A stretch of DNA of 58,442 nucleotides from a virus (IMGVR_UViG_3300005512_000037:1-58442); one strand, 5' to 3'. Shown: positions 56,387 to 57,877, numbered from the stretch's first letter. A program made the numbers and translations. Notes: a model not told the origin generated them from the letters alone.

Positions 56387-57877
56387 ATGGCTAAACTTTT
56401 TAATCGGGCCAAGATGACGACAGCCACGACTGGAACAGGCACTATTACGCTAGGTAGTGCCTCTTCAGGATTTCAGTCTTTCGCGGATGCGGGTGTTTCT
56501 GATGGTGATGTCGTCCAATATGTGATCGAGGAAAGTTCAAACTTCGAGATCGGGACAGGTACATACACCGCATCAGGAACAACTCTGACGCGGACTGTAA
56601 CCGAAAGCACAAACAGTAATAACCCAATTAACCTAGCGGGCGATGCTTTAGTTTCTATTACTGCAATCGCTGCAGATTATAACCGCTTGCAGCATGAGGG
56701 CAGCGATAAGGTCACTGTTACTTCTACTGGCGCTTCGGTCACTGGTAATATTACTGTCACTGGCACTGTGGACGGACGTAATGTCGGGACTGATGGTTCT
56801 AAACTGGACGGCATTGAGGCCAACGCAGATGTCACTGACAGTGCGAATGTAGGCACATCTCTTACAGGATTTGCTACAGAAACATCTTTTCAAGGTGCTG
56901 ATCTTGTAGCGGTATATGATACTTCTGCATCTGCATGGCGTAAGGGTACTATTACAAATGCTGCTCTCCAAGGTCCAAAAGGCCAAAAGGGTGAGGTGGG
57001 TGATACAGGTACTCAGGGCGCGACAGGGCCGACTGGACCCACTGGCCCACAAGGTCAAAAGGGACAAAAAGGCGAATTAGGTGGCACTGGCCCCACGGGT
57101 CCAACAGGACCAACTGGTGCAAAAGGTCAGAAGGGTGAGGTAGGAAACACAGGTCCGACAGGTGGCACTGGTCCAACTGGCCCAACAGGTCCAACAGGTA
57201 GTACTGGCCCAACAGGTCAAAAGGGTCAAAAGGGTGAAGTGGGCAACACAGGACCAACTGGCCCTACAGGCCCGAACGGACCCACTGGACCGACAGGACC
57301 GACTGGTCAAAAAGGCCAGAAAGGACAGAAGGGTGAGACAGGAAGTACGGGTCCGACTGGGCCAAACGGTCCAACAGGACCGACTGGTCCAACGGGTCCA
57401 CAAGGTCAAAAAGGACAGAAGGGTGAGGTAGGGTCCACTGGTGGTACGGGGCCAACTGGACCCACTGGACCCACTGGTCCTACAGGTCAGAAAGGTCAAA
57501 AAGGTCAGACTGGGAATACTGGTCCCACTGGGGGAACTGGGCCTACAGGGCCAACTGGTCAGAAAGGTCAGAAAGGCGAGACAGGCTCTGCAGGTGGTAC
57601 GGGTCCAACTGGTCCAACTGGTCCGACTGGTCAAAAAGGACAGAAAGGTGAGGGTGGTTCAACCACTGCAACAGCTCAAACATTTTCTGATGTTAGAGTA
57701 GCACAATTTGGTTGGCCTAGAACAGTATCACCTGGATTTAGTAACGGAACTTATATGTCAGGGGGTAGCAATCCCGGAGGGAATAGCGCTGGGACGTTTA
57801 CAAATGGTTCGTATTCATATGGGAGTTACGATGGATCATTTCAGGGAGCGGCAACTATAGCAGTGAGGACAAGTTAA
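56387..57877 (+). CDS. Collagen-like tail fibre
   Basis: N-terminal [12 protein letters not shown]...EIG-x-GTY anchor; Gly-X-Y run 56972-57664 (~77 triplets). Confidence 0.9.

Follow-up and report, generated by a model that had tools for sequence, protein, structure and literature searches.

What is the lysine-rich collagen rod of a bacteriophage tail fibre for, and which enzymes act on it? The question is raised by a 496-residue tail-fibre gene at 56,387–57,877 (+ strand) of IMGVR_UViG_3300005512_000037, an IMG/VR virus record of 58,442 bases, hereafter the window, which is estimated to be 95% complete. The same genome encodes a 603-residue PLOD-like enzyme (771–2582, +) and a 185-residue Fe(II)/2-oxoglutarate oxygenase with a prolyl-hydroxylase fold (223–780, +). 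Animals and one giant virus are known to hydroxylate and glycosylate collagen Lys. Our sequence comparisons and structure models indicate that this fibre of a marine phage is probably hydroxylated and glycosylated by the two enzymes, whose genes are the third and fourth after its own. That the fibre would be the substrate of the PLOD-like enzyme, as a preliminary description of the window had predicted, is well supported by comparison across viral contigs.

The fibre comprises an N-terminal part (residues 1–195), a collagen rod (196–426) and a C-terminal knob of 70 residues. Its open reading frame (ORF) matches Pfam Collagen (PF01391) above the cut-off, with an E-value of 4.1e-32, and PHROG tail-fibre families. 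Over residues 100–204, the fibre shares 59–64% identity with proteins annotated as tail proteins in the Roseobacter phages CRP-207 and CRP-6, and this homology, a position within the tail module and a chaperone gene on the 3′ side mark the protein as a tail fibre. The rod, encoded at 56,972–57,664 (+), is a single unbroken run of 77 Gly-X-Y triplets. All 19 of its Lys residues occupy the Y position and none occupies X, while all 34 Pro residues occupy X and none occupies Y; assuming random placement between X and Y, the chances of these distributions are about 2e-6 (0.5^19) and 6e-11 (0.5^34), respectively. A further 46 Y positions hold Thr, and the triplets include 29 GPT and 17 GQK. The Lys residues fall into nine tandem G-x-K-G-Q-K-G-E/Q blocks separated by G-P-T runs, with 2, 2, 2, 2, 3, 2, 2, 2 and 2 Lys per block along the rod. 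K-G-E closes eight of the nine blocks, and the 19 Lys are followed by G-E in 8 cases and G-Q in 11. The preliminary description had given this rod exactly, coordinates included. Block starts lie 7–11 triplets apart, with a mean of about 9, a roughly regular spacing that arises because the collagen DNA is a degenerate tandem array of 81–90-bp units with 67–72% matches. All 19 Lys stand in X-Lys-Gly within collagenous sequence, which agrees with excerpts of PMC9546862, where X-Lys-Gly is the helical-domain context for collagen lysyl hydroxylases, as had been proposed for these residues. On the opposite strand, three ORFs of 101–185 residues, rich in Leu, Ser, Trp, Thr and Pro, overlap the collagen DNA (56,648–57,634, −); we rejected them as genes, as they look like by-products of the repeat.

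The 603-residue enzyme comprises three modules: a GT25/COLGALT-like glycosyltransferase (GT) module at residues 1–170, an LH3-type GT module at about 180–420, and a lysyl-hydroxylase (LH) module at about 430–603. Its sequence matches GT_PLOD (8.7e-34), Glyco_transf_25 (2.9e-14) and 2OG-FeII_Oxy_3 and, in the PDB, LH3, R699 and COLGALT1. The C-terminal double-stranded β-helix domain carries a basic 2-oxoglutarate ligand and an Fe(II) triad, HxD...H, which aligns to the Fe site of LH3. In the GT-A domain, MDGYD aligns to VDSYD of LH3, the DxxD Mn site, and DKDDQL aligns to DDDDQL, the poly-Asp acceptor loop. Residues D249, D252, D331, D332, H529, D531, H578 and K588 are invariant among 33 sequences of 36–87% identity. 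An AlphaFold (AF2) model, with a mean predicted local distance difference test score (pLDDT) of 85.2, matches full-length human LH3 (E 5e-27), the LH3 GT domain (6wfv; template modelling score (TM) 0.80), the hydroxylase domain of mimivirus L230 (6ax6; TM 0.76, root-mean-square deviation 2.1 Å) and COLGALT1 (5e-8), and its middle module matches the fold of mimivirus R699 (E 4.6e-14). The LH3 domain order of GT, accessory and LH domains is not kept, the accessory domain being absent. We propose that the enzyme works like LH3 plus COLGALT1 without sharing the LH3 architecture, and with all the catalytic residues checked retained, it looks catalytically competent. For the enzyme family, 104 cluster representatives were found at an E-value of 1e-30 or better in 1.84 billion proteins, and only 11 of 50,697 GenBank phage records encode the enzyme.

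Fibre and enzyme lie near opposite ends of the window, in which no terminal repeat was found. The end and start of the window are contiguous, because a relative contig, L011, spans both without a break: a region internal to that contig is collinear with window positions 49,165–58,215 and then directly with 469–12,289. Across this junction, the genes run in the order fibre, fibre chaperone, 60-residue ORF, 185-residue oxygenase and PLOD-like enzyme. Collinearity with L011 bears out the earlier placement of the fibre about four genes upstream of the PLOD-like enzyme on a circular map.

Does this kind of collagen accompany the enzyme in other viruses? We scanned for DNA encoding GQKGQKGE, which yielded at least 118 loci, at least 109 of them with an in-frame collagen ORF, and ran a Lys-blind control scan for 16 Gly codons at period 9, which also yielded at least 118 loci. 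The control collagens were taken from DNA pattern scans because a tblastn search with the full-length fibre against GenBank phages masked the collagen as low complexity and aligned the N-terminal part only. Both scan samples consist of whatever loci matched first, and all counts drawn from them are among the matches listed. Enzyme modules were detected with hidden Markov models built from 65 enzyme ORFs, and the locus comparison was limited to collagens with at least 5 kb downstream. Among 30 such GQKGQKGE collagens, 22 had a gene with an LH domain (19 a GT+LH gene and 3 an LH gene of other architecture) and 8 had none, whereas the 29 Lys-blind collagens had 0 GT+LH genes, 1 other LH gene and 28 loci with none (22/30 vs 1/29; Fisher p 1.5e-8). 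A comparison between phages with and without the enzyme had been proposed in the preliminary description; run here, it links GQK-block collagens to the enzyme.

Whole records gave the same picture. We searched in full 15 GQKGQKGE records whose loci had been chosen for the absence of the enzyme nearby, and a hydroxylase-domain match was found in 8, including all five that were at least 90% complete and one that was 82% complete. No hydroxylase match was found in 17 low-Lys records searched whole, among them five at least 90% complete and three at 82–86%. Records at least 90% complete thus had an LH-domain match in 5/5 GQKGQKGE cases vs 0/5 low-Lys cases, and those at least 80% complete in 6/6 vs 0/8.

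The association also holds when it is read from the enzyme to the collagen. At 51 IMG/VR loci with the enzyme, a same-strand collagen ORF lies upstream in 44, with Lys at Y only; in each of the remaining seven, the sequence available upstream is 2,640 bp or less. The 31 distinct enzyme-linked collagens contain 709 Lys, every one of them at Y; G-x-K accounts for 15–39% of their triplets, and a median of 100% of the Lys lie in tandem blocks. All four GenBank phages that we opened (CRP-6, S-PRM1, S-CAM9 and S-8S53), which span a short-tailed roseophage and T4-like cyanomyoviruses, encode a fibre with Y-Lys blocks just upstream of the enzyme. Roseophage CRP-207, which lacks the enzyme, encodes a fibre that is homologous (64% identity across residues 100–199) and has a collagen run of 13 triplets with no Lys. 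This CRP-207 run, in gp52 (L054:7407–8852), consists partly of G-A-D repeats, and the C-terminus of gp52 is, judged by eye, presumably of the phage tail-collar type.

A second enzyme architecture was also seen, at loci L099, L137, L166 and L283 and in records G002, G007, G009, G010 and G014. These are frames of about 750–775 residues (shorter in L137, and adjacent smaller frames in G002) with a GT25-like N-terminal piece and an LH domain 24–28% identical to that of the window, without the LH3-type GT module. They often occur with collagens of roughly 40–55% G-x-K (231/475 triplets in L099, 247/439 in L107). L283 (3352–5736 and 9144–12,344), a 170-kb viral contig, encodes a 308-triplet collagen that is 88% G-P-x and has only 4 Lys, together with a 795-residue protein of the GT25-like and LH type and a homologue of the small oxygenase.

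Several observations weigh against the fibre as substrate. No hydroxylase gene was found at 8 of the 30 GQKGQKGE loci with at least 5 kb downstream, nor in 7 of the 15 whole records, all seven of which are only 7–58% complete. Collagen and enzyme are inherited together as one cassette, so that the locus linkage counts are not independent. Lys at Y also occurs without the enzyme: 23 of 116 enzyme-less collagens among the matches listed have at least 15% G-x-K, mostly in a K-G-D context. Nine Y-Lys-rich enzyme-less records, their Lys mostly in G-P/D/E-K-G-D, were searched whole and held no enzyme homologue, and three of them (G033, G036 and G040) are 85–95% complete. We rejected Y-position Lys alone as a marker of enzyme-bearing phages, since enzyme-less collagens with 17–42% G-x-K exist. 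Finally, excerpts of PMC11923368 describe K-G-E and K-G-D as anomalously common across collagen-like proteins from every domain, especially viral ones, where K-G-D makes up about 13% of triplets, and report that both slow unfolding. Under the rules given in the same excerpts, with i to i+2 used twice and i to i+5 once, K-G-x-K-G-E can saturate with salt bridges each of the three chain pairs in a homotrimer (PMC11923368). Because K-G-x-K-G-E meets this published geometry, the tandem-Lys block has a full explanation that needs no modification at all.

On that explanation, the G-x-K-G-Q-K-G-E blocks would be purely structural, periodic knots of salt bridges that both nucleate a hydroxyproline-free triple helix and lock it kinetically, and the enzyme would act elsewhere or at few sites. 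The K-G-E endings of eight blocks and the fit of the first Lys to the i to i+5 rule favour it, as do the frequency and slow unfolding of K-G-E and K-G-D and the many Lys-rich collagens of enzyme-less phages. We nevertheless consider it unlikely. It leaves the link between motif and hydroxylase unexplained, both at the loci and in the near-complete records, and it leaves unexplained which residue follows K-G: Q in 67%, E in 30% and D in 1% of cases in enzyme-linked collagens, although K-G-D is the usual viral salt-bridge triplet, vs D in 59% and E in 16% in enzyme-less ones. Most enzyme-linked Lys lack an acidic partner at i+2 (K-G-D/E); in the window's fibre, the salt-bridge code is shared by the 8 of 19 Lys that stand in K-G-E, and the tandem block fits both the i+2 and the i+5 rule. 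The fibre is, moreover, the sole collagen ORF of the 95%-complete genome. The predicted role of the fibre as substrate of the PLOD-like enzyme is therefore retained on the strength of the linkage and the intact catalytic residues, and what does not survive is Y-position Lys by itself, which is unspecific.

Could Thr rather than Lys carry the sugars? Riftia cuticle collagen and BclA are precedents for Thr glycosylation of collagens, and the rod is GPT-rich, with its 29 GPT triplets and 46 Y-position Thr; these Thr might be the main glycosylation sites, Lys modification being minor. We regard this as highly improbable. The modules of the adjacent enzyme match proteins that handle Lys or hydroxylysine (Hyl), namely LH3, R699, L230 and COLGALT1, while the Lys-blind sample contains many GPT- and Thr-rich collagens that have no Lys and are not accompanied by the enzyme (e.g. 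L196, L239 and L216). No Thr-directed glycosyltransferase was found among the 20 window proteins scanned. The possible glycosylation of Y-position Thr raised in the preliminary description thus found no support, all three modules of the enzyme matching the machinery that leads from Lys to Hyl to Gal to Glc.

The position of Pro directs attention to the second enzyme, the small oxygenase, which matches Pfam 2OG-FeII_Oxy_3 (4.7e-15). It has a fold of the prolyl 4-hydroxylase (P4H) or prolyl hydroxylase domain type with HxD...H and Arg, and H102, D104, H162 and R172 are invariant among 14 sequences. Its AF2 model (pLDDT 85.3) best matches P4Hs, with the Pseudomonas putida P4H whose structure was solved with EF-Tu in first place and the prolyl hydroxylases of hypoxia-inducible factor (HIF) next. 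Its nearest sequences are PKHD-type hydroxylases, and its sequence similarity to the PBCV-1 type is weak. The PBCV-1 collagen prolyl hydroxylase (5c5t) shares the fold at rank 14th, with a TM of 0.66–0.67, and the HxD...H...R residues of the PBCV-1 and Bacillus anthracis P4H type are also those that are invariant in the small oxygenase; unlike in those systems, the fibre has Pro only at X (G-P-T).

The presence of this oxygenase follows the Pro content of the fibre. Of 57 non-duplicate loci with enzyme and collagen, 29 also have the oxygenase, and in these the median share of triplets with X-position Pro is 43%; in the 28 loci that lack it, the median is 0% and the maximum 9%. When 61 enzyme sequences are placed on a tree, oxygenase presence agrees with X-Pro content in 60 of the 61 rows, and the well-supported branches include at least 5 on which the oxygenase label changes. 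Five independent contrasts can be drawn from the tree; X-Pro shifts with the oxygenase in 4–5 of them and in the opposite direction in none. In the Lys-blind sample, the oxygenase occurs at 4 loci among the matches listed, all with Pro-rich collagen. One of these, L249, has an oxygenase homologue (6079–6687, E 1.7e-61) beside a Pro-rich, Lys-free collagen (6632–7570; X-Pro in 34 of 55 triplets), and no PLOD-like gene was found within its 7.6-kb contig. From this covariation and the predicted fold, the 185-residue oxygenase is a probable hydroxylase of the fibre's X-position Pro. The tie between all-X Pro and a second oxygenase is absent from the preliminary description and is the stronger new lead.

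Three results count against this assignment. A sign test on the 5 independent contrasts gives only p 0.06–0.125, as they are too few for significance. L082 (1718–3967 and 6294–6833) has the oxygenase, yet its adjacent 148-triplet collagen is Pro-free, and this exception is real. Of the 63 Lys-blind loci among the matches listed in which X-Pro reaches 20% of triplets or more, 60 have no oxygenase in the available stretch; with a homologue in only 3 of the 63, we rejected the idea that X-Pro collagens generally need it. The small oxygenase may instead act on something other than fibre Pro, either as a second lysyl hydroxylase or on another protein such as a translation factor, in the way that bacterial P4H acts on EF-Tu. 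We take this seriously, as a possibility only a little short of even. Known collagen P4H acts on Pro at Y, and the fibre has Pro only at X; the best fold matches are the P. putida enzyme solved with EF-Tu and then the HIF hydroxylases, the nearest PKHD-type sequences have unknown or non-collagen roles, and L082 fits such a role. Such a role leaves unaccounted for the tracking of X-Pro across 60 of 61 loci with repeated well-supported changes on the enzyme tree, and the uniformly Pro-rich collagens at the four Lys-blind oxygenase loci, of which L249 has neither Lys nor a PLOD gene nearby. In S-CAM9 (L294:12,746–13,911) and S-8S53 (L295:12,731–13,911), two tandem small 2-oxoglutarate-Fe(II) oxygenase genes lie between the fibre and the PLOD-like gene, and in S-8S53 more oxygenases and a tail assembly chaperone follow a few kb farther on.

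How might the fibre then be matured, if both enzymes act on it? The fibre is predicted to be a homotrimer with a collagen rod. Collagen rises by 0.286 nm per residue, and the 231 residues of the rod would span about 66 nm. Modification would take place after translation, in the cytoplasm of the infected cell. The LH module would first turn Y-position Lys in the G-x-K-G blocks of the unfolded chain into 5-hydroxylysine, and the GT25-like and LH3-like modules would next place one or two hexoses on that hydroxyl, by analogy with COLGALT1 plus LH3 in animals and L230/R699 in mimivirus. The expected product would carry clusters of sugars every 7–11 triplets, or about 6–9 nm, along the rod. With less certainty, the 185-residue oxygenase would hydroxylate X-position Pro in the G-P-T runs. 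The downstream chaperone might then aid trimerisation of the chains. In addition, interchain salt bridges are probably formed by the Lys that ends each block, in K-G-E, so that the blocks may contribute to stability as well as being sites of modification.

The closest known counterpart is mimivirus of Acanthamoeba polyphaga, which likewise encodes both collagens (e.g. L71) and enzymes that hydroxylate and glycosylate their Lys, the phage side being read from sequence and models. The activities of L230, a lysyl hydroxylase and hydroxylysyl glucosyltransferase, and of R699, a glucosyltransferase, are described in the available parts of PMC9546862 and PMC12279948. In contrast to this giant virus of amoebae, the present genome is that of a bacteriophage of about 58 kb, its three modules lie on one 603-residue chain, its candidate substrate, a tail fibre, keeps to a fixed G-Q-K-G-Q-K-G-E dialect, and it adds a separate oxygenase of prolyl-hydroxylase fold that accompanies X-Pro. 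With the animal pathway, in which LH1–3 (PLOD1–3), the GT25 enzymes COLGALT1/2 and the LH3 glucosyltransferase act on Lys, the phage fibre has the X-Lys-Gly context in common. Unlike the animal protein, the phage enzyme has no LH3 accessory domain and bears a short GT25-like N-terminal module instead; its setting is cytoplasmic and prokaryotic, and its identity to the animal enzymes is 16–28%. At the position aligned to the 2-oxoglutarate-binding Arg of LH3, it has a Lys instead.

The nearest cultured relative of the module is in Roseobacter phage CRP-6 (gp60 fibre, gp59 and gp58), whose enzyme is 56% identical to that of the window. Its fibre gene, directly upstream, encodes 99 triplets with 26 Y-Lys blocks. 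Unlike the window, CRP-6 lacks the small oxygenase and has only 6 X-Pro in the 99 triplets. The main text of the CRP-6 paper, which describes this phage type as abundant, mentions neither collagen nor oxygenase (PMC6918029). Our literature searches, supplementary files excluded, returned no description of hydroxylysine or PLOD-like enzymes with collagen-like phage fibres, cyanophage collagen included. The nearest precedent is the general prediction by Iyer et al. (2010) that bacterial dioxygenases modify collagen-like proteins, as given in the accessible part of that paper (PMC2938197). The tracking of X-Pro by the small oxygenase is new here.

Across marine phages, we tentatively suggest a portable, position-specific cassette for collagen maturation, a wider proposal that we would put at appreciably less than an even chance. 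It would build collars of glycosylated Hyl every 6–9 nm and hydroxylate X-Pro, the fibre would co-evolve with its enzymes, Pro going when the small oxygenase is lost, and the cassette would have moved between short-tailed roseophages and T4-like cyanomyoviruses. If so, collagen Lys chemistry runs in the bacterial cytoplasm, on the receptor-binding organelles of very common ocean phages. For the production of modified recombinant collagens in bacteria, the 603-residue enzyme and the 185-residue oxygenase would offer simple tools, and the Lys dialect together with the X-Pro covariation provides a map, open to direct test, of the residue that each enzyme would read.

On the 5′ side of the fibre gene lie genes for terminase, portal, major head and tail or virion structural proteins. 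Immediately 3′ is the 130-residue tail-fibre assembly chaperone (57,878–58,270, +), which matches Pfam Phage_tail_APC (1.2e-18) and PHROG tail-fibre assembly families. It is followed by a small ORF that runs off the window end (58,284–58,442, +) and would be about 60 residues long on a circular map, with a stop near window base 21. Right after the PLOD-like gene comes a 385-residue gene (2627–3784, +) that is kept in L011; a search gave no significant match to a Pfam or PHROG family for it. Farther on, an ORF of 2,189 residues (16,097–22,666, +) matches DarB-like antirestriction PHROG families over its C-terminal third (1.9e-43).

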